Source of the DNA: an uncultured Candidatus Saccharibacteria bacterium
Lineage (GTDB): Bacteria; Patescibacteriota; Minisyncoccia; Phycocordibacterales; Phycocordibacteraceae
DNA: 44,758 bases
Assembly (NCBI GenBank): GCA_964455225.1
Contig: CAYVUT010000002.1
Location: 1 to 44,758, forward strand
Direction of reading: 5' to 3'
This document shows, in pieces, positions 2,353 through 17,405 of this stretch; position 1 is the stretch's first letter, and each line of letters opens with the position of its first letter. A model generated the notes under the pieces. The model worked only from the letters and a program-made list of their open reading frames with translations, made no database searches and was not told the origin of the DNA. The translations under genes were made by a program, and so were the position numbers.

Positions 2353-3153
2353 ATGGCCAACACCACAAAAAAGAGGATTCGAGTAAATGCGGGACCGTCG
2401 GGAACGACAAAGCGCAAGGCGGCGAAAAAGGCGCGCGCAGCAAAGCCTGTGGCGGAGAAGAAGGTTGCTGCCCCAGTTGCTACGGACGCGCGTGAGGCAC
2501 AGGTGTACTCCATGGAGGGTAAGAAGGTCTCCATGCTCGCGCTCCCCGCGGAAATTTTCGGTAAGACATGGCGCCCAGAGTTGGTGCACCAGGTAACGAC
2601 GGCACTTTCTGCGAACCTCCGCCAGAACCGCGCGCACACTAAGGACCGCGCAGAAGTCGCCGGCGGCGGTAAGAAGCCCTGGAAGCAGAAGGGTACCGGT
2701 CAGGCACGTCACGGTTCCACGCGTTCTCCGATCTGGCGCCACGGCGGTATCACCTTCGGTCCTCGCAATACGCGCGATTACTCCGAGAAGATAAACCGCA
2801 AGATGAAGGTGGGCGCACTCTTCTCCCTGCTTTCTCGCAAGGCGAAGGATGGCGAAGTGCTCTTGGTCGACAAGTTCGCGTTCTCCGCTCCGAAGACCAA
2901 GGCAGCAGTGAACGCTCTTGCGGCAGTCGGCAAGGCTGCTGATGCCAAGCTTCTCTCGGATACGGGCCGCAAGACGGCGCTCGTGGTACTCGCTTCGTAT
3001 GAGGCAAATGCCATCAAGAGCTTCCGCAACATGCAGGGCGTAGCGACTGAAGAAGCACGCAATCTCAACCCGCTCTCGGTCCTCTCGCATCGCTACCTCA
3101 TCATCGAGAAGCCGGAAGAGTCGTTTGCAGCGCTCGCCGCTCGTGGTAAATAA
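2353..3153 (+). CDS. rplD: 50S ribosomal protein L4 with a ~47-aa K/A-rich N-terminal extension
   Basis: ATG 2353; the ORF track start at 2344 is a TTG three codons upstream. The L4 core reads KKPWKQKGTGQARHGSTRSPIWRHGGITFGP. Confidence 0.95.
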   Translation: MANTTKKRIRVNAGPSGTTKRKAAKKARAAKPVAEKKVAAPVATDAREAQVYSMEGKKVSMLALPAEIFGKTWRPELVHQVTTALSANLRQNRAHTKDRAEVAGGGKKPWKQKGTGQARHGSTRSPIWRHGGITFGPRNTRDYSEKINRKMKVGALFSLLSRKAKDGEVLLVDKFAFSAPKTKAAVNALAAVGKAADAKLLSDTGRKTALVVLASYEANAIKSFRNMQGVATEEARNLNPLSVLSHRYLIIEKPEESFAALAARGK

Positions 3154-3158
3154 ATCGT

Positions 3159-3521
3159 ATGGCTATCTTCGGATCTAAAAAAGAAGAGGGAAAGAAGGAC
3201 GCGCACAAGACGTACGCGAAGGCGCGCACGCACGCGGCGGGCAAGGCAGCCGACATCATCCGCGCACCCTGGTTCTCTGAGAAGGCGCTTATCTCTACAG
3301 AGCGCGGCGTCTACGCGTTCTCCATTCCGCAGGATGCTACGAAAGCCGATGTCGCGGGTGCGGTGAACGAGGTGTTCAAGGTGAAGCCGAAGAAGATCCG
3401 CATCGTCAACCTACCGGGGAAGCGGGTAACGCTCCGCACACGCCGCGGCATGGGTACTCGTGCGGCGCGCCGCAAGGCCTACGTCTACCTCCACAAGGGA
3501 GACACCATCCAGTTCGCATAA
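3159..3521 (+). CDS. rplW: 50S ribosomal protein L23 with an N-terminal basic extension
   Basis: 120 aa. IIRAPWFSEKA...YAFSIPQDATKADVAGAVNEVFKVKPKKIRIVN is the L23 fold sequence, in the expected position between rplD and rplB. Confidence 0.93.
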   Translation: MAIFGSKKEEGKKDAHKTYAKARTHAAGKAADIIRAPWFSEKALISTERGVYAFSIPQDATKADVAGAVNEVFKVKPKKIRIVNLPGKRVTLRTRRGMGTRAARRKAYVYLHKGDTIQFA

Positions 3522-3532
3522 CGCTACCGCCT

Positions 3533-4381
3533 ATGAAAAGCTATCGTCCAACTACCAAGAGCCGCCGTTTCATGACCACGCTTCCGTTCCGGGAGCTCCT
3601 TTCGGGCGATCGTCCGTACAAGGCGCTCTTGAAGAACAAGAAGCGACAGGGCGGCCGTAACGATTTCGGTCGTATCACGACCCGTCACCAGGGCGGAGGC
3701 CACAAGCGTCGCCTGCGCGATGTCGATTTCTCATACGACAAGAAGAACATTCCGGCCAAGATCGAGACCGTTGAATACGATCCGTTCCGCTCGGCATTCA
3801 TCGCGCTTGCGCTCTATGCGGATGGTGAACGCCGCTACGTCATCGTCCCTAAGGACATGCGCGTGGGAGACTCCTTCACGGTTTCTGAAGATGCATCCGT
3901 GACGATTGGGAACCGCATGCCGCTTGGCAAGATTCCGGTCGGTACCTTCGTGTACAACATCGAGCTCCAGCCTGCTGCAGGCGCACGCCTCGTTCGCTCT
4001 GCGGGTAGCTACGCTGAAGTGGTGGCGCATGACGCTGGGTTTGCTCAGCTCAAGCTCCCTTCGACCGAGATCCGCAAGGTCTCTGACCTCTGCTGGGCAT
4101 CCGTTGGTGCGGTTGGCAACGAAGAGCACAACCTCGTCGTTATTGGTAAGGCAGGCCGCTCGCGCTGGATGGGTATCCGCCCGACTGTCCGCGGTACGGT
4201 GATGAACCCAGTTGACCACCCGCACGGCGGCGGCGAAGGAAAGCAGGGCCGCGGTTTGAAGCGGGCAAAGTCCCTCTGGGGCAAGCCAACCGGCAAGGGC
4301 CAGAAGACCCGTACGCCGAAGAAGTACTCCAACGTCTTCATCGTCTCTCGCCGCCGAGTCGGCAAGCGCAAGAAGGCGTAA
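3533..4381 (+). CDS. rplB: 50S ribosomal protein L2
   Basis: 282 aa with the GRNDFGRITTRHQGGGHKRRLR and MNPVDHPHGGGEGK motifs. Confidence 0.98.
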   Translation: MKSYRPTTKSRRFMTTLPFRELLSGDRPYKALLKNKKRQGGRNDFGRITTRHQGGGHKRRLRDVDFSYDKKNIPAKIETVEYDPFRSAFIALALYADGERRYVIVPKDMRVGDSFTVSEDASVTIGNRMPLGKIPVGTFVYNIELQPAAGARLVRSAGSYAEVVAHDAGFAQLKLPSTEIRKVSDLCWASVGAVGNEEHNLVVIGKAGRSRWMGIRPTVRGTVMNPVDHPHGGGEGKQGRGLKRAKSLWGKPTGKGQKTRTPKKYSNVFIVSRRRVGKRKKA

Positions 4382-4383
4382 AC

Positions 4384-4410
4384 AAAAGCCCCGCGAAAGC
4401 GGGGCTTTTT
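4384..4410. terminator. Bidirectional hairpin terminator after rplB
   Basis: AAAAGCCCCGC-GAAA-GCGGGGCTTTTT. It follows the rplB stop (4381) and also lies just downstream of the minus-strand ORF ending at 4423. Confidence 0.7.
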
Positions 4411-4422
4411 CGAGTCGGCTGA

Positions 4423-4623
4423 TCAGTAGTCCGTTCGAGCGAGACTCTTCCGAAACGCGACCCGTTCGGCCTCAAGTTCTGCGGCCGTCTGGATTCTCCG
4501 GCCTTTCTGGTCATAACGTGGCTGAGGTTTGAGTGGCGCATCCTCAACCTCCCGGTCCTTACCAAGTTCTGGATCAAACAGGAGCTCGGTAAGTACGTCT
4601 ATCAGCGCATCAAAGAACCTCAT
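4423..4623 (-). CDS. Hypothetical small protein (66 aa from ATG 4623; 89 aa if the TTG at 4692 is used)
   Basis: Minus-strand ORF. ATG 4623 is preceded by AGGAG at 7-nt spacing. No family recognised. Lies antisense within the rplB-rpsS gap. Confidence 0.5.
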   Translation of the reverse strand: MRFFDALIDVLTELLFDPELGKDREVEDAPLKPQPRYDQKGRRIQTAAELEAERVAFRKSLARTDY

Positions 4624-4690
4624 GCCTTGTCTCCTGTGTATGGACTCTGGAAAACCCCTGTCTTCAGCGTACTCCTTAAGCTTTAAAAGC

Positions 4691-4715
4691 AAAGCCCCGC
4701 ACCTGCGGGGCTTTT
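4691..4715. terminator. Hairpin with T-tract between the two antisense ORFs
   Basis: AAAGCCCCGC-ACCT-GCGGGGCTTTT. The stem sequence is the same as in the hairpins at 4384-4410 and 17031-17056. Confidence 0.6.
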
Positions 4716-4728
4716 ATGTGCAATAGGT

Positions 4729-4971
4729 TCAGAAGAGCACTGAAATTGAAACTTTGCCATCGGTGCTGCTACTGAGGAGCGACTCAAGGATCCAATGGTC
4801 CTTTGTCACGTACGCCGCAGGCCCTTTTAGGGCTGCTTCCGATGAGCCGGTAGCCTCGATGCATACCTTGACCGTTTCTCCGTACTCAGCCGCGATGTTG
4901 TTCATGTGGCCCAATATCTCAGCCAGATTTTTCGCATTGCGGCCTCCGGGTACACCAGCCTCGTCGTTCAT
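4729..4971 (-). CDS. Hypothetical small protein, 80 aa
   Basis: Minus-strand ORF. ATG 4971 is preceded by GGGAGAAGG. No family recognised. Confidence 0.5.
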   Translation of the reverse strand: MNDEAGVPGGRNAKNLAEILGHMNNIAAEYGETVKVCIEATGSSEAALKGPAAYVTKDHWILESLLSSSTDGKVSISVLF

Positions 4972-5057
4972 GTCCTTCTCCCTGCCTAAGTGGGGTACAA
5001 GCCAGGGTGCAATCTAGCGCGTCTTGCCCCTTACCGCAACGGAAACCAAGGTGCCGT

Positions 5058-5086
5058 TTGACACCAGTCAGGCTTTCCTATACATT
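5058..5086 (+). promoter_or_regulatory. Sigma70-like promoter restarting the r-protein operon at rpsS
   Basis: TTGACA (5058-5063), 17-nt spacer, TACATT (5081-5086). Lies 36 nt upstream of the rpsS ATG. A small hairpin CCCGC-CTC-GCGGG plus TTTT sits in the leader. Confidence 0.5.
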
Positions 5087-5121
5087 TCTGTAATCCCGCC
5101 TCGCGGGTTTTCATTTGCTTT

Positions 5122-5460
5122 ATGGCACGCTCACTCAAGAAAGGACCCTTCGTGGACGTCAAACTCCTCAAGAAGCTCCAAGGAAAGAAGCCTGGCTCCG
5201 GCGAGGCTATTAAGACGTGGGCGCGCCGTTCGCAAATCAGCCCAGAAATGGTCGGTTTCACCTTCGGCGTCCACAACGGCAAGACCCATATCGACGTCCT
5301 CGTTTCTGAGGAGATGGTGGGTCATCGCCTTGGAGAGTTCTCGCCGACCAAGAAGTTCACTCGTCACGGCGGCAAGATGCAGAAGGAGCTCGAGCAGAAG
5401 AAGCAGGAGGCTGAGATCGCAGCTGCAAAGTCTGCAACCGCAGCGCCCGCGAAGAAATAA
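5122..5460 (+). CDS. rpsS: 30S ribosomal protein S19 with a ~25-aa K/E/A-rich C-terminal extension
   Basis: [12 protein letters not shown]...[38 protein letters not shown] is S19. Confidence 0.96.
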
Positions 5461-5463
5461 CGT

Positions 5464-5781
5464 ATGCGCGCGACTCTCGATAACTACAACCAGTCCCCGC
5501 GCAAGGTCCGTCTCGTGACGGATCTCGTGAAGGGTAAGAAGGTAAAGGATGCGCTCGCGTCGCTTGAGTTCCTTCCGAAGCGTGCCGCAGAGCCGATCAA
5601 GAAGCTCATCGAGAGCGCCGTTGCGAACGCAAAGGCGAAAGGCGAGAAGCCGGAAGCGCTCACGGTGAAGTCTCTTTCTGTCGAGAGCGCAGGCATGATG
5701 GTCCGCTACATGCCGCGCGCGTTCGGCCGTGCCGCTCCGATCCGCCGCAAGAAGTCCCGCGTGAAGCTCGTGCTCGGCTAA
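5464..5781 (+). CDS. rplV: 50S ribosomal protein L22
   Basis: 105 aa. SPRKVRLVTDLVKGKKV.DAL..L.F.PKRAAEPI.K...SAVANA is L22, in the expected position. Confidence 0.95.
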   Translation: MRATLDNYNQSPRKVRLVTDLVKGKKVKDALASLEFLPKRAAEPIKKLIESAVANAKAKGEKPEALTVKSLSVESAGMMVRYMPRAFGRAAPIRRKKSRVKLVLG

Positions 5782-5787
5782 TTTTTT

Positions 5788-6498
5788 ATGACACACACCG
5801 TACATCCATACGCACACCGCCTCGGCATCATCCGCGACTGGAAGAGCCGCTGGTTTGCTGCTGACAAGAAGAATTTCCGCGAAAACCTGAAGGTAGACGC
5901 AGCTATCCGCGCGTTCCTCACCAAGCGCCTCCGTGGCACCTACACGGCTGGTATCGAGATCGAGCGCTCCGCAAACGAGCTCCGCGTCATCCTTTCGACT
6001 GCACGCCCGGGACTCGTTATCGGTCGTTCTGGCGAAAACGCAACGAAGCTCCGCAAAGAGATCGCTGACGTCGTTCGCGCGGTCGCCCCAGCGCATGGCC
6101 GCACGCTGAAGCTCGACATCGTCGAGATCCGCCAGCCGGAACTTTCCGCGGCAGTGGTGGCCTACATGGTCGCCGAAGGCCTTGAGAAGCGCCTGCCGTT
6201 CCGCCGCGTCTTGAAGAGCACGCTTGAGAAGGTTGATGCCGTCCGCGAGGTTGAGGGTGTCCGTATCGCTATTTCCGGCCGCCTGGGCGGTGCAGAAATG
6301 AGTCGCCGCGAGCAGGCTAAGAAGGGTCGCATCCCGCTCCAGACGTTCCGTGCCGACATCGATTTCGCGCACGAGCAGGCATACCTGCCGTACGGCGTCA
6401 TTGGCATCAAGGTGTGGATCTACCGCGGCAATGTCTACGCGAACGACAAGAAGGCTGCGGTCCGCAAGGAGGAGGCGATGAACCCCGCACGCCCATAA
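5788..6498 (+). CDS. rpsC: 30S ribosomal protein S3
   Basis: 236 aa. VHPYAHRLGIIRDWKSRWFA..., a KH domain, and GRLGGAEMSRREQAKKGRIPLQTFRADIDF. Confidence 0.97.
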   Translation: MTHTVHPYAHRLGIIRDWKSRWFAADKKNFRENLKVDAAIRAFLTKRLRGTYTAGIEIERSANELRVILSTARPGLVIGRSGENATKLRKEIADVVRAVAPAHGRTLKLDIVEIRQPELSAAVVAYMVAEGLEKRLPFRRVLKSTLEKVDAVREVEGVRIAISGRLGGAEMSRREQAKKGRIPLQTFRADIDFAHEQAYLPYGVIGIKVWIYRGNVYANDKKAAVRKEEAMNPARP

Positions 6499-6505
6499 CA
6501 CTGCT

Positions 6506-8001: not shown

Positions 8002-8580
8002 ATGATGCTTACGAAACAAAAACAGCAGACTGCCTTTGAGGCGCTTTCCGAGTCGTTCGGCTATACGAGCCGCATGCAGGCTCCGCGCATCACGAAGGTC
8101 GTCGTCTCAAGCGGCGTCGGCAAGAAGCGCGATCCGAAAGTGCTCGCGCTCATCGAGAATCGCCTGGCACAGATCACCGGACAGAAAGCGGCACCGCGTG
8201 CAGCGCGCATGTCCGTCGCTTCTTTCAAGGTGCGCCAGGGCGATACGGTCGGTTTCCAGATCACGCTTCGCGGTGCGCGTATGTTCGATTTCCTCGACAA
8301 GCTCGTGCACATCGCTCTTCCGCGTACCCGTGACTTCCGAGGCATCGATCCGTCCGCGGTCGACTCGATGGGAAATCTCACCATCGGCATCCGCGAGCAT
8401 ACGATCTTTCCGGAAACGTCTGACGAGGACGTGAAAGACGTGTTCGGTTTTGCCGTAACGGTGGTCACGACGGCAAAGGGGAAAGCTGAGGCCGAGGCTT
8501 TCTTCCGTCATCTCGGAGTACCGCTTCGCGAAGCGACCGCGGCTGCTTCCGCACGGGTTGACCGCGCTCGTAAACGCTGA
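8002..8580 (+). CDS. rplE: 50S ribosomal protein L5
   Basis: 192 aa with [14 protein letters not shown] and [13 protein letters not shown]. Confidence 0.95.
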
Positions 8581-8615
8581 TAGGCTCAAGCGACGCTCCC
8601 GAGGAGCTATTTTTT

Positions 8616-15273: not shown

Positions 15274-15645
15274 ATGTTTCGCTGGTCTTGGTTGTGCGCA
15301 GCGCTGGTCGGACTCGTCGGTCTTCTCACGGTCAACGCGTGGGCATTCGTGAATTATGTGTACTGGACGCATCGTTGGACGGACATTCCGATGCATCTCG
15401 CCGGCGGGCTCATCGTCGGGATCTTCCTTGTCGGATTCCTCAGGGACTACCGCCCAACCGCCTTTTTCATGCTCGTACTCGTCTTTGCCGTCGGTTGGGA
15501 GGTGTTTGAGTTTCTCTTTAATATTGCAGTCGAGGGGAGTGGTCGGACCTATGTGCTCGATACGGCATCTGACCTCGCGAATGGTGCAGTCGGTGCGACG
15601 CTCGCGTACTTTCTCGCACGCAAAACCGTATGGCACTTACGCTGA
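15274..15645 (+). CDS. Hypothetical integral membrane protein (~4 TM), 123 aa
   Basis: ATG 15274 with hydrophobic segments throughout. Overlaps the next gene by 16 nt. No family recognised. Confidence 0.6.
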   Translation: MFRWSWLCAALVGLVGLLTVNAWAFVNYVYWTHRWTDIPMHLAGGLIVGIFLVGFLRDYRPTAFFMLVLVFAVGWEVFEFLFNIAVEGSGRTYVLDTASDLANGAVGATLAYFLARKTVWHLR

Positions 15646-17015
15646 CTTTTTATGGCGGCGCCGGGAAAGTGACCGGCTCGAATTTTCTCATCGAATCCGG
15701 CGCAAGCAAGGTGCTTGTCGATTGCGGCATTGAGCAGGGAAGGGATTTTTGTGAAGAGTGCGTCTATGGACCATTTCCTTATGACGTGCGCTCGATCGAT
15801 GCGCTCATCGTCACGCATGCGCACCTTGATCATGTGGGGCGAGTGCCAAAACTCGTCAAAGACGGATTCCGAGGGAAGATCTTCATGACGCCGCCGACAC
15901 GGGATCTCGCAGAGCTTATTCTGCGAGATTCGGTCGGCATCCTGGGGATCGAGGCAAAGCGCCGAGGGCTTGCCCCCTTGTACGAGATGGAGGATGTCGA
16001 CCTCGCGCTCTCGCTCATCGAGACGCTCGAATACCACGTGGAAAGACGCGTCAGCGCCGAGCTCTCCATCTATTTCCGCAATACTGGTCACATTCTCGGT
16101 GCGGCAAGCGTGCGCATCACTGGTCCGGATGGCGAGACCGTCGTGTGTACGGGCGATATCGGCAACTCGCCCTCGCCACTCCTGCCAGACTTCGAGACGG
16201 TGCCCGACGCCGACGCGCTCGTCATGGAGAGCGTATACGGCGATCGGGTCCACCCGCAAAAGGAAGAGCGGGTGACGCAGTTGCGTGCGATCCTCAAGAG
16301 CGCGGTGGCTCGAGGGGGTGCCATCCTCATGCCCGCGTTTTCTATGGAGCGCACGCAGCTCATGCTCTATGAGCTTTCTAATCTGTTTGCGGCCGGTGAG
16401 CTTCCGAAGATACCGGTCTTTCTCGACTCACCGCTTGCGATCGGTGTCACGGCGCTTTATGAGAAGTGGGGAAAAGAATATTTCAAGGCAGAAGCGGAAG
16501 ACGAGCTGCGACGCGAGGGCAGTCTTTTTGAATTTCCGTTCCTTGAGAAGACGCGCGCTTCAGAAGACTCAAACCGTATTGCCGGAGTCCGGAATCCGAA
16601 GATCATCATCGCGGGTGCAGGTATGAGCCATGGCGGCCGCATAGGCCGATGGGAGCGCGAGTACCTGCCTGATAAAAATTCAACGCTCATCATGGTCGGG
16701 TACCAGGCTCCCGGTTCTCCCGGGCGACTGCTCTCCGATGGTGTCTCCCGCATCCGTATCGGTGGAGAAGAGGTGAGCGTGCGTGCGCGGGTTGAGCACC
16801 TTGAGGGCTGGTCTGCACATGCTGATCGGGACGGACTGCTCGCATTTGCGGAAGCGGCATTGCCGCGCGCGAAGGTCATCTTCACGGCGCTTGGCGAACC
16901 GGGCGCGGCCAAGTTCTTGGCGCAGCGCATTCATGACTATCTCGGCGGCAACGCCGTCGTTCCGCAGGTGGGGGAGCGGTGGGAGGTCACGAAAGATTCC
17001 GTGACGAAAAAATAA
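15630..17015 (+). CDS. Beta-CASP family metallo-beta-lactamase RNase (CPSF73-like)
   Basis: 461 aa. LTFYGGAGKVTGSNFLIE...VTHAHLDHVGRVP (HxHxDH)...GDIGNSPSPLL...AGMSHGGRI...LEGWSAHADRDGL. Confidence 0.85.
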   Translation: MALTLTFYGGAGKVTGSNFLIESGASKVLVDCGIEQGRDFCEECVYGPFPYDVRSIDALIVTHAHLDHVGRVPKLVKDGFRGKIFMTPPTRDLAELILRDSVGILGIEAKRRGLAPLYEMEDVDLALSLIETLEYHVERRVSAELSIYFRNTGHILGAASVRITGPDGETVVCTGDIGNSPSPLLPDFETVPDADALVMESVYGDRVHPQKEERVTQLRAILKSAVARGGAILMPAFSMERTQLMLYELSNLFAAGELPKIPVFLDSPLAIGVTALYEKWGKEYFKAEAEDELRREGSLFEFPFLEKTRASEDSNRIAGVRNPKIIIAGAGMSHGGRIGRWEREYLPDKNSTLIMVGYQAPGSPGRLLSDGVSRIRIGGEEVSVRARVEHLEGWSAHADRDGLLAFAEAALPRAKVIFTALGEPGAAKFLAQRIHDYLGGNAVVPQVGERWEVTKDSVTKK

Positions 17016-17030
17016 GCACTTAGGATAAGC

Positions 17031-17056
17031 AAAAGCCCCGCTTTCGCGGGGCTTTT
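17031..17056. terminator. Bidirectional hairpin terminator between the beta-CASP gene (+) and rplT (-)
   Basis: AAAAGCCCCGC-TTTC-GCGGGGCTTTT, the exact reverse complement of the 4384-4409 element. Confidence 0.7.
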
Positions 17057-17057
17057 G

Positions 17058-17405
17058 TTAGCCGACCTTCTGTGCGATTCGCGCGAACACCTCGGGGTGT
17101 TCTGCGGCAAACTGTGAGAGTACCTTGCGGTCAAGCTGGATGCCGCCCTTCTTAAGCTTGTTGATGAATGTGGAGTACGACTTGTGGCCGTTCTCGCGGA
17201 CGGCGGCATTCAAGCGGACGATCCAAAGCTGACGGAAATCCGTCTTCTTGTCGCGGCGGTGGTTGAACGCGTACTTGCCGGCATGGAGAAGTGCCTCGTG
17301 TGCAAAACGCTCTTTCGTAGAACGGATGCCACGATAGCCCTTCACGCGCTTCAAGACGTTCTTGCGGCGCTTCTGTGCCATCATTCCTCCTTTGACTCGT
17401 GCCAT
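17058..17405 (-). CDS. rplT: 50S ribosomal protein L20
   Basis: 115 aa with MARVKGGMMAQKRRKNVLKRVKGYRG and RRDKKTDFRQLWIVRLNAA. Confidence 0.96.
   Translation of the reverse strand: MARVKGGMMAQKRRKNVLKRVKGYRGIRSTKERFAHEALLHAGKYAFNHRRDKKTDFRQLWIVRLNAAVRENGHKSYSTFINKLKKGGIQLDRKVLSQFAAEHPEVFARIAQKVG

Follow-up and report, generated by a model that had tools for sequence, protein, structure and literature searches.

The rplB and rpsS genes of the S10 ribosomal protein cluster are separated by an unusually long gap in a 44,758-nt stretch of DNA from an uncultured Candidatus Saccharibacteria bacterium (contig CAYVUT010000002.1). The whole of this stretch is referred to as the window, and all positions are counted in it; L-numbers denote the related loci or genomes with which it was compared. 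The rplB gene (uL2), identified from the list of open reading frames (ORFs) and by tblastn to relatives at 61-74% identity, occupies 3533-4381 on the plus strand and is the last gene of the upstream transcription unit. The rpsS gene (uS19) occupies 5122-5460 on the plus strand and is the first gene of the downstream unit. The spacing between them is 740 bp, as had been stated in an earlier reading of the sequence (the original prediction). In 58 bacteria outside the Candidate Phyla Radiation (CPR), found by the same rplB search, the junction is 7-159 bp long, in agreement with the statement in that prediction that the two genes are normally adjacent.

The gap contains two strong hairpins, two minus-strand ORFs with Shine-Dalgarno (SD) sites and a promoter, all of them at the positions given by the original prediction. 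Hairpin 1 (4384-4409; AAAAGCCCCGC-GAAA-GCGGGGCTTTT) begins 2 nt after the rplB stop codon and 13 nt from the stop codon of ORF A. It is a predicted bidirectional intrinsic terminator with an 11-bp stem, including the A/T tracts on both sides, and by its position it serves the end of rplB on the plus strand and the end of ORF A on the minus strand. Its folding energy is -21.4 kcal/mol on the plus strand and -20.3 kcal/mol on the minus strand (z about -3.5). Hairpin 2 (4691-4714; AAAGCCCCGC-ACCT-GCGGGGCTTT) lies 14 nt past the stop codon of ORF B, has A/T tracts on both sides and folds with -21.2 and -20.0 kcal/mol on the plus and minus strands; it is predicted to be a terminator of the same bidirectional type. 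Folding on each strand bore out both the hairpin with a T-tract after rplB and the second hairpin sharing its stem. The two have the same 7-bp stem and form a 30-nt direct repeat, 80% identical. GC-rich stems, short loops, U-runs on both strands and positions just past stop codons are the features of bidirectional intrinsic terminators, and the activity is predicted from them.

The stem pattern GCCCCGC-N3-8-GCGGGGC has three occurrences in the window, where 0.01 are expected. The third copy (17031-17059; AACAAAAGCCCCGCGAAAGCGGGGCTTTT) is identical over 29 nt to 4381-4409, inverted and 12.6 kb away. It lies between the convergent genes 15630-17015 (plus strand) and 17058-17405 (minus strand), and the hairpins are therefore read as the bidirectional intrinsic terminators of this organism. 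The third copy may have arisen by duplication or gene conversion, or the two sequences may have converged on an optimal terminator with a GNRA loop. Most relatives have an analogous hairpin after rplB, and the predicted terminator there is usually of the bidirectional kind.

ORF A (4423-4623, minus strand, 66 aa) runs from an ATG at 4623 to a stop codon at 4423-4425 and has AGGAG 7 nt upstream. An in-frame TTG extension to 4692 would lengthen it to 89 aa. ORF B (4729-4971, minus strand, 80 aa) runs from an ATG at 4971 to a stop codon at 4729-4731, with GGGAGAAGG ahead of the ATG. The insert is less GC-rich than the flanking genes (0.485-0.57 against 0.59-0.645), as the original prediction had judged by eye. 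GC at third codon positions (GC3), computed with the codon usage, is 0.55 in ORF A, 0.61 in ORF B and 0.71 in reference genes. SD-like motifs are found upstream of only three of the 31 confident genes of the window, and two of these three motifs are hairpin stems. Exceptions, in a window where such motifs are nearly absent, are ORF A and ORF B, each of which has one. The lower GC3 and the SD sites in a genome otherwise without them mark both ORFs as foreign or young. The start codons of the 31 confident genes typically follow T/A-rich tracts.

The predicted restart promoter of rpsS (5058-5086, plus strand) has the sequence TTGACA-17-TACATT, matches the consensus at 10 of 12 positions and is the sole sigma-70-like site found by a promoter scan of 3000-6500. 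Between it and the rpsS ATG lies a further element that the original prediction did not list, a short leader hairpin followed directly by a U-run (5095-5111, plus strand; CCCGC-CTC-GCGGG-TTTT).

The rplB-rpsS junction in related genomes

The best rplB relatives, at 61-69% identity, are metagenome-assembled genomes of Candidatus Kaiserbacteria and other Paceibacteria (Patescibacteria/CPR). The rplB-rpsS distance is 145-1,108 bp in 11 close relatives that have both genes on the locus, and 88-7,856 nt, with a median of 561, in 49 related loci. The other junctions of the S10 cluster have medians of roughly 15-100 nt, which makes rplB-rpsS an outlier. A promoter, a 5' hairpin and a U-run precede rpsS in about 60 related loci, most of which also have a terminator after rplB.

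The junction exists in an empty and an occupied state. Empty sites, of which at least nine were found, are 93-130 nt long. The terminator abuts the -35 hexamer directly in the empty L131, L091, L093, L136, L096, L101 and L108, the site in L136 reading tag-cagAAAAGACCCCGCGAAAGCGGGGTCTTTG-TTTGAC; the promoter alone is present at the empty L003, L099 and L126. Occupied sites measure 0.3-7.9 kb and hold one to six genes on either strand, belonging to more than 25 unrelated cargo clusters. The cargo includes MazE with MazF (PF04014 and PF02452; L001/L084), DUF5674 with a 90-aa partner (L014), a DAG kinase (L013), a class I/II aminotransferase, a pyruvate kinase with neighbouring metabolic genes, a 902-aa surface protein, small membrane proteins and many orphans. 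Conserved flanking core genes, unrelated content and empty sites are what characterizes an integration hotspot or islet.

The break itself is shared by these genomes, and its cargo differs among them. It follows that the break belongs to the clade as a whole and that each genome has cargo of its own. The original prediction had the cassette splitting the operon, and this did not hold, since relatives with a cargo-free gap of only 93-130 nt have the terminator/promoter break as well. That prediction had named an uninterrupted junction in the relatives as evidence against itself; the comparison gave the opposite result, the relatives being interrupted too, by different genes. Its further suggestion of an acquired cassette came close to the truth in that the S10 cluster is really interrupted and the content is atypical and without family. 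The cassette is, however, not the cause of the break. The comparison indicates that the operon split is ancestral to the Kaiserbacteria-like clade. In L072, of the Yanofskybacteria, rplB and rpsS are still contiguous. The 740-bp gap of the window is probably the occupied state of an accessory-gene slot that exists throughout these Kaiserbacteria-like Patescibacteria.

DUF5674 (121-128 aa) with an overlapping helical partner of about 90 aa, which has no family, is a recurrent plus-strand occupant immediately after rplB (L014, L092, L098, L120 and L129); the partner occurs alone in L113, L128 and L137. There is often no terminator between rplB and this pair, which may thus be co-transcribed with the ribosomal genes. 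The largest cargo, of 7.9 kb, is found in L105 (identical to L087; 577-8432). It consists of a 902-aa secreted repeat protein followed by minus-strand genes, namely a pyruvate kinase barrel (Pfam hit), an orphan and genes that by eye resemble enolase, glycerate kinase and 2-hydroxyacid dehydrogenase. Genes of core metabolism can therefore reside in the slot. In L010 (4941-8735), rplB precedes a gene for a repeat-rich surface protein of 1,007 aa and an ORF of 230 aa in which IS200/RAYT-like motifs were seen by eye, without a family search. No rpsS lies within 4 kb there, suggesting that the junction can open very widely.

A second, less extreme variable junction is rpsJ-rplC, which is 5-1,032 nt long in 13 relatives. 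In the window this gap is 364 nt long (1360-1723). It has a hairpin with a T-run after rpsJ (1382-1405, about -34 kcal/mol in context), a promoter-like TTGCAT-17-TAGAGT (1613-1641), a structured leader, and a hairpin with a T-run (1702-1723) abutting the rplC ATG.

The two minus-strand reading frames

Neither ORF matched anything in Pfam, NCBIfam, PHROGs, PADLOC or the sequences of the PDB. A match to SF1-HH at E 0.017 is far below the cut-off and was treated as spurious, as were matches to Tako8, a designed repeat protein. The original prediction had recognised no family for either peptide; this stands after profile searches of both and a fold search with ORF B, and no function was assigned.

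ORF B has a single homologue in 5.8 billion clusters, full-length and 80% identical. Its orthologue in the closest relative, the sister genome L081-L083, has the same antisense position upstream of rpsS. The ratio of nonsynonymous to synonymous substitution (dN/dS) between ORF B and its orthologue in L081 is 0.106 at a dS of 1.09; the neighbouring ribosomal protein genes have ratios of 0.004-0.057 at dS 0.5-1.3. The value for ORF B is that of a protein-coding gene under purifying selection. No relative of either ORF was found among the cargo of the related loci, and ORF B was absent from every other clade member examined. By these comparisons ORF B is a real gene, restricted to the species of the window and one sister species. 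An exhaustive profile search of 1.84 billion representatives returned ORF B itself and long repeat proteins matching over short stretches, which were judged spurious on reading.

The AlphaFold2 model of ORF B is of fairly high confidence (pLDDT 78.6, pTM 0.71) and has the topology beta-alpha-beta-beta-alpha-beta. The best PDB match of the model (E 1.3e-3, TM 0.56) is a subdomain of tetrapyrrole/RsmI-type methyltransferases, which is weak and non-diagnostic; the best viral match has an E of 0.06. ORF B encodes an acidic protein (pI 4.9) of near-neutral hydropathy, in which no hydrophobic segment is obvious by eye, no signal-peptide or transmembrane predictor having been run. The model suggests a small acidic soluble alpha/beta protein with a generic fold.

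The SD site and 5' region of ORF B form a 47-nt block (4977-5023, minus strand) that is almost 100% conserved in L081 despite nearly saturated synonymous sites (dS about 1). No significant RNA fold was found for this block on either strand. The block could represent an operator or the promoter and 5' untranslated region of ORF B. A putative weak promoter of ORF B, read from the sequence, is located at 5011-5039 on the minus strand (TTGCGG-17-TAGATT), back to back with the rpsS promoter. L081 has TTGCGA-17-TAGATT in its place, with the hexamers conserved and a different spacer.

The sister genome is about 85% identical to the window over 5.3 kb. In L081, homology covers hairpin 1 (26 of 26 nt, at the end of the contig) and resumes from position 4666 rightwards, so that hairpin 2 is kept with a different loop. 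Between the homologous parts lie 255 nt in the window and 352 nt in the sister, which are mutually unrelated. The sister segment has in the place of ORF A an orphan ORF of 104 aa with a pI of 9.4 and codon periodicity, and both ORF A and this replacement are singletons.

ORF A is highly charged (pI 5.1) and has no homologue in 5.8 billion clusters. Its AlphaFold2 model is helical and of low confidence (pLDDT 69, pTM 0.34), too poor for a fold search. It is a serious possibility, even if the less probable one, that ORF B is the sole gene of the insert and that 4411-4690 is a fast-evolving non-coding spacer or a decayed remnant, in which ORF A is a chance or dying frame. Apart from the lack of homologues, this would agree with the codon score of ORF A, which at 0.06 is below the 5th percentile of real genes (0.49±0.19 in reference genes), with its length, which is not significant because an ORF of at least 66 codons occurs in 14% of shuffles of the segment, and with the failure to recognise a promoter between hairpin 2 and the start of ORF A. 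The frame opposite ORF A is open as well, and the replacement in the sister, likewise an orphan, has three overlapping long ORFs. However, ORF A has a pronounced codon periodicity (GC1 0.71, GC2 0.38, difference 0.33; permutation p<0.0002), and its in-frame codon score is far above those of the two other frames on the same strand (-0.90 and -1.21). It is also preceded, at 7 nt, by a canonical AGGAG, in a genome with hardly any other SD motifs, and has a dedicated terminator 13 nt past its stop codon. On these sequence properties ORF A is probably coding.

The predicted promoter and the leader of rpsS

The predicted rpsS promoter has the features of the sigma-70 type in that its hexamers, 17±1 nt apart, are conserved at orthologous positions in L081 and other relatives; the transcription start derived from it is a predicted one. 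Between the window and L081, the -35 hexamer, the -10 hexamer and the leader up to the ATG are identical except for one base of the loop, and 9 nt of the spacer have diverged. A diverged spacer between identical hexamers has the appearance of a classical promoter footprint. Assuming that transcription starts 7 nt after the -10 hexamer, the RNA would have about 1-4 nt ahead of the leader hairpin (about 1-3 nt in the window). Its stem has 5 bp (-8.3 kcal/mol, z -1.3), and the rpsS ATG has no SD motif in front of it.

Public genomes and metagenomes were scanned with the leader pattern TTTCCTATACATT-N6-10-CCCGC-N3-4-GCGGGTTT. This gave 18 genome loci and 36 metagenome loci, each matching once. In 50 of the 54 loci, which are all those in which the fetched stretch includes rpsS, the pattern is found 10-60 nt ahead of that gene. 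The rplB-rpsS spacing in these loci extends from 93 to 7,856 nt. The form TTGAC(A/T)-17-TACATT precedes rpsS in these 54 motif-selected loci, in which the -10 region and the stem are invariant by construction, having been fixed in the pattern. Evidence is therefore drawn only from the loop and the flanks, from where the match lies with respect to rpsS, and from eight relatives found independently.

Most close relatives have TTGAC-N16-17-TAnnnT followed, 5-9 nt later and before rpsS, by a short hairpin with a T-run. In a set of 40 different Kaiserbacteria leaders, the stem is fixed (partly by the construction of the search) and the 4 nt of the loop are essentially random in sequence; the flanks GTGCGGACT and TTTTCAATTG, which are outside the search pattern, are conserved. 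The promoter is present also in the eight more distant relatives, which had been found via rplB. They have seven alternative stems in the same place, each a perfect hairpin followed by a T-run, for example AACGCC/GGCGTT, GTTGCCG/CGGCAAT, AAGCTCG/CGAGCTT, GGTGAGCC/GGCTCATT, GAGCTC/GAGCTT and GCTC/GAGC. The chance of a hairpin with a T-run at this place, estimated by dinucleotide shuffles, is 0.0015-0.16 per sequence, with a product of about 1e-12. The leader thus has a conserved structure with free loops and eight different stems. The shuffle test of each sequence took the place of RNAalifold and of a covariance model. RNAalifold gave no pairs on a MAFFT alignment of the divergent leaders, in which stems of different lengths are out of register, and a covariance model of the Kaiserbacteria leaders, in which promoter sequence outweighed the rest, failed to align the leaders of the distant relatives.

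The same succession of promoter, hairpin and U-run is found in the window before rplC (hairpin at 1702-1723) and rpsN (8595-8615), and in L008 and L015 before a gene about 1.4 kb upstream of rpsJ, which is probably tuf. Since the same design occurs at several genes, it is read as the generic leader of strongly expressed translation genes in this clade. Most likely the leader serves as a 5'-terminal stem that would stabilize the mRNA, combined with a U-rich, SD-independent site for ribosome loading. This fits the near absence of SD motifs in the window. Stabilizing 5'-terminal stem-loops are familiar from bacterial mRNAs of the ompA, ermC and aprE type. The rpsS leader resembles them in the distance of about 1-4 nt between hairpin and predicted start, in its free loop and in the compensatory replacement of its stem. 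It differs in that its hairpin is always followed by a U-run, like a weak intrinsic terminator, and in that the start is only a predicted one.

A role of the leader as a weak attenuator or as an insulator against read-through is possible. The more specific proposal, that the hairpin and U-run are a regulatory attenuator, either an autogenous ribosomal protein leader or a read-through insulator, and that ORF B is co-regulated with ribosome synthesis as a ribosome-linked factor, is rather unlikely. It would account for the U-run directly after every hairpin, a terminator geometry kept through the complete turnover of the stems, and for the 47-nt block that lies ahead of ORF B on the side of the rpsS promoter and has hardly changed at a dS of about 1. 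However, the occurrence of the design at rplC, rpsN and the probable tuf argues for a generic leader and not for a specific protein-binding site. The short and weak stem also speaks against an attenuator, and a candidate antiterminator, the alternative pairing GCGG/CCGC, is not conserved across the leaders and was rejected. A search of 4200-5300 against Rfam gave no family at threshold, its hits being terminator hairpins far below the gathering score, and 900-1800 gave sub-threshold terminator-like hits only; the leader was thus not assigned to any of the Rfam families of autoregulatory ribosomal protein leaders. A link of ORF B to the leader is further weakened by its restriction to two species of the clade. 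The S10 leader of E. coli, at which L4 mediates attenuation, likewise has a hairpin and a U-run in the leader of a ribosomal protein unit. It is about 170 nt long, whereas the hairpin described here has 13 nt, matches no Rfam family, recurs at several other genes and lies in a unit other than that encoding L4, which is the upstream one.

At rpsN the elements (8558-8615) are TTGACC-17-TAGGCT inside the 3' end of rplE, followed by GCTCC-CGA-GGAGC and T6 abutting the ATG, which suggests another internal start or attenuation point. The rpsS leaders of L001/L084, L092, L099, L109, L113 and L114 have an insert of 40-60 nt of short repeats of the CCTAG type (e.g. CACCTAGAACCTAGTCCCTAGCACCTAG) between the hairpin and the ATG.

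Proposed organization of the slot and turnover of its cargo

According to the proposed explanation, the S10 cluster would be cut between rplB and rpsS into separate transcription units. Transcription of rplB would stop at hairpin 1, and rpsS with its downstream genes would be transcribed from a strong sigma-70-type promoter of their own, with a U-rich leader lacking an SD site. The DNA between terminator and promoter would then be transcriptionally insulated from both ribosomal units, and insertions in either orientation would for this reason be tolerated. The cargo of the window would form two independent monocistronic antisense units. ORF B would probably be expressed at a low level from the weak promoter divergent from that of rpsS, with its transcript ending at hairpin 2. 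Any expression of ORF A would depend on read-through of hairpin 2, and its transcript would end at hairpin 1. The original prediction had transcription of the insert running head-on into the operon. With ORF A stopping at the bidirectional terminator of rplB and ORF B diverging from the rpsS promoter, no collision with the transcription of the ribosomal protein genes is expected.

The interpretation of the gap as an occupied slot is carried directly by its anatomy, the conservation of promoter and leader, the variability of the cargo, the selection on ORF B and the replacement of ORF A in the sister genome. Several points weigh against it. The terminators, both promoters and the expression of either ORF are predictions, and the candidate promoter of ORF B is a poor one, matching 7 of 12 consensus positions and staying below the threshold of the promoter scan. 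ORF A has its low codon score, its unexceptional length and no recognised promoter, and neither ORF has an assigned function. The invariance of the leader in the 54 scanned loci was built into the pattern. Short-term turnover was followed in a single close relative at 85% nucleotide identity, from which the direction of the replacement of ORF A is not derivable.

The slot was most likely filled by ordinary homologous recombination via the conserved flanks after transfer between relatives. A more elaborate version, in which the junction is a dedicated and insulated landing pad that samples new or foreign genes, the leader stops read-through, the matching hairpins are exchange points for orphan ORFs and ORF B is a lineage-specific factor tied to ribosome synthesis, is quite unlikely.

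The exchange step can also be considered by itself. The near-identical hairpins might be recombination sites, and the ORF between them a miniature cassette swapped by hairpin-directed recombination of the integron, REP or IS200 type. The segment replaced in the sister ends exactly at hairpin 1 and about 20 nt from hairpin 2, the two hairpins form the direct repeat described above, the third, inverted copy lies 12.6 kb off, and the IS200/RAYT-like ORF of L010 sits in the same slot. Nevertheless, such an exchange is improbable. There are merely three copies in 44.8 kb, and duplicated hairpins flanking the cargo were not seen in other occupied slots. The succession of A-tract, GC stem, GNRA loop and T-tract is the generic type of terminator in the clade (e.g. 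L136 and L094), so that the similarity of the hairpins may be convergent. No recombinase was found near the slot in the window by a search that was not exhaustive. Integron cassettes have an attC site (an imperfect palindrome of 57-141 nt with R and L boxes), a single orientation, and an intI integrase with an attI/Pc platform in the vicinity. The elements described here differ from them, being perfect palindromes of 24-26 nt with A/T tracts, and the cargo of the relatives lies on both strands; here too the search of the window for an integrase was not exhaustive.

The suggestion of the original prediction that the two ORFs are a toxin-antitoxin (TA)-like or other obligate pair, inserted as a unit that split the operon, is very improbable and largely refuted: the ORFs are small, adjacent, on the same strand and each provided with an SD site, and a genuine MazEF in the same slot of L001/L084 demonstrates that TA modules can land there, but they match no TA, defence or DNA-binding family in Pfam, NCBIfam, PHROGs or PADLOC, are separated by 105 nt with a hairpin of -20 kcal/mol and a T-run and so would each have a terminator of their own, and are not inherited together, the sister having kept ORF B and both hairpins with the unrelated 104-aa orphan in place of ORF A, while the operon break is present without cargo in many relatives. 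Separate termination and separate inheritance exclude an obligate pair. The likeness to type II TA systems such as MazEF, whose genes are co-transcribed and abut or overlap and whose products come from recognised families or folds (PIN, RelE/ParE, MazF or HicA among the toxins; RHH, HTH, AbrB or Phd among the antitoxins), is thus confined to the two small adjacent ORFs and to the true MazE/MazF found in other occupied slots.

The slot shares with integration hotspots or "genomic islets" its constant flanks, rplB and rpsS in about 60 genomes, and a variable, small content that is often orphan or of TA type, atypical in composition and on either strand. It differs in that it is situated inside what is normally a single conserved ribosomal protein operon and is bordered by conserved regulatory elements; no tRNA, integrase or repeat-bounded island structure was seen at it. 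According to two reports (PMC6735719, PMC8046335), the translation gene cluster has gained multigene insertions in the course of evolution, and these build up where one transcription unit meets the next. The insertions described there lie between classical operons of Gammaproteobacteria and Bacilli, whereas the slot marks a new boundary within S10 in a clade of Patescibacteria. A full-text literature search did not find a description of a break at the rplB/rpsS junction in Patescibacteria. The behaviour of hotspots and islets is already known; what is new here is the clade-specific boundary inside S10, defined by conserved regulatory elements.

Few bacterial gene arrangements are as well conserved as that of the S10 cluster, which is routinely used as a concatenated phylogenetic marker and as a check of contiguity for metagenome bins. 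An interruption between rplB and rpsS is accordingly not to be taken as a misassembly by annotators and binning tools. A clade of ultrasmall, genome-reduced Patescibacteria has a fixed break at this junction, at which up to 8 kb of accessory genes are stored, and the slot is a convenient place in which to seek recently gained genes in genomes that are mostly losing them. The break bears on the control of ribosomal protein stoichiometry in the Kaiserbacteria-like Patescibacteria. It also defines a promoter and a leader in an uncultivated lineage that is largely without SD sites. ORF B, which is well supported, and ORF A, which is doubtful, enlarge the pool of taxonomically restricted small proteins.

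Some of the ribosomal proteins encoded in the window have extended termini. The uS19 protein (112 aa in total) has a C-terminal tail of about 28 aa rich in Lys, Glu and Ala (5374-5460), and only its residues 1-84 align to relatives. The uL4 (266-269 aa) and uL23 (120 aa) proteins appear to be extended at their N termini.

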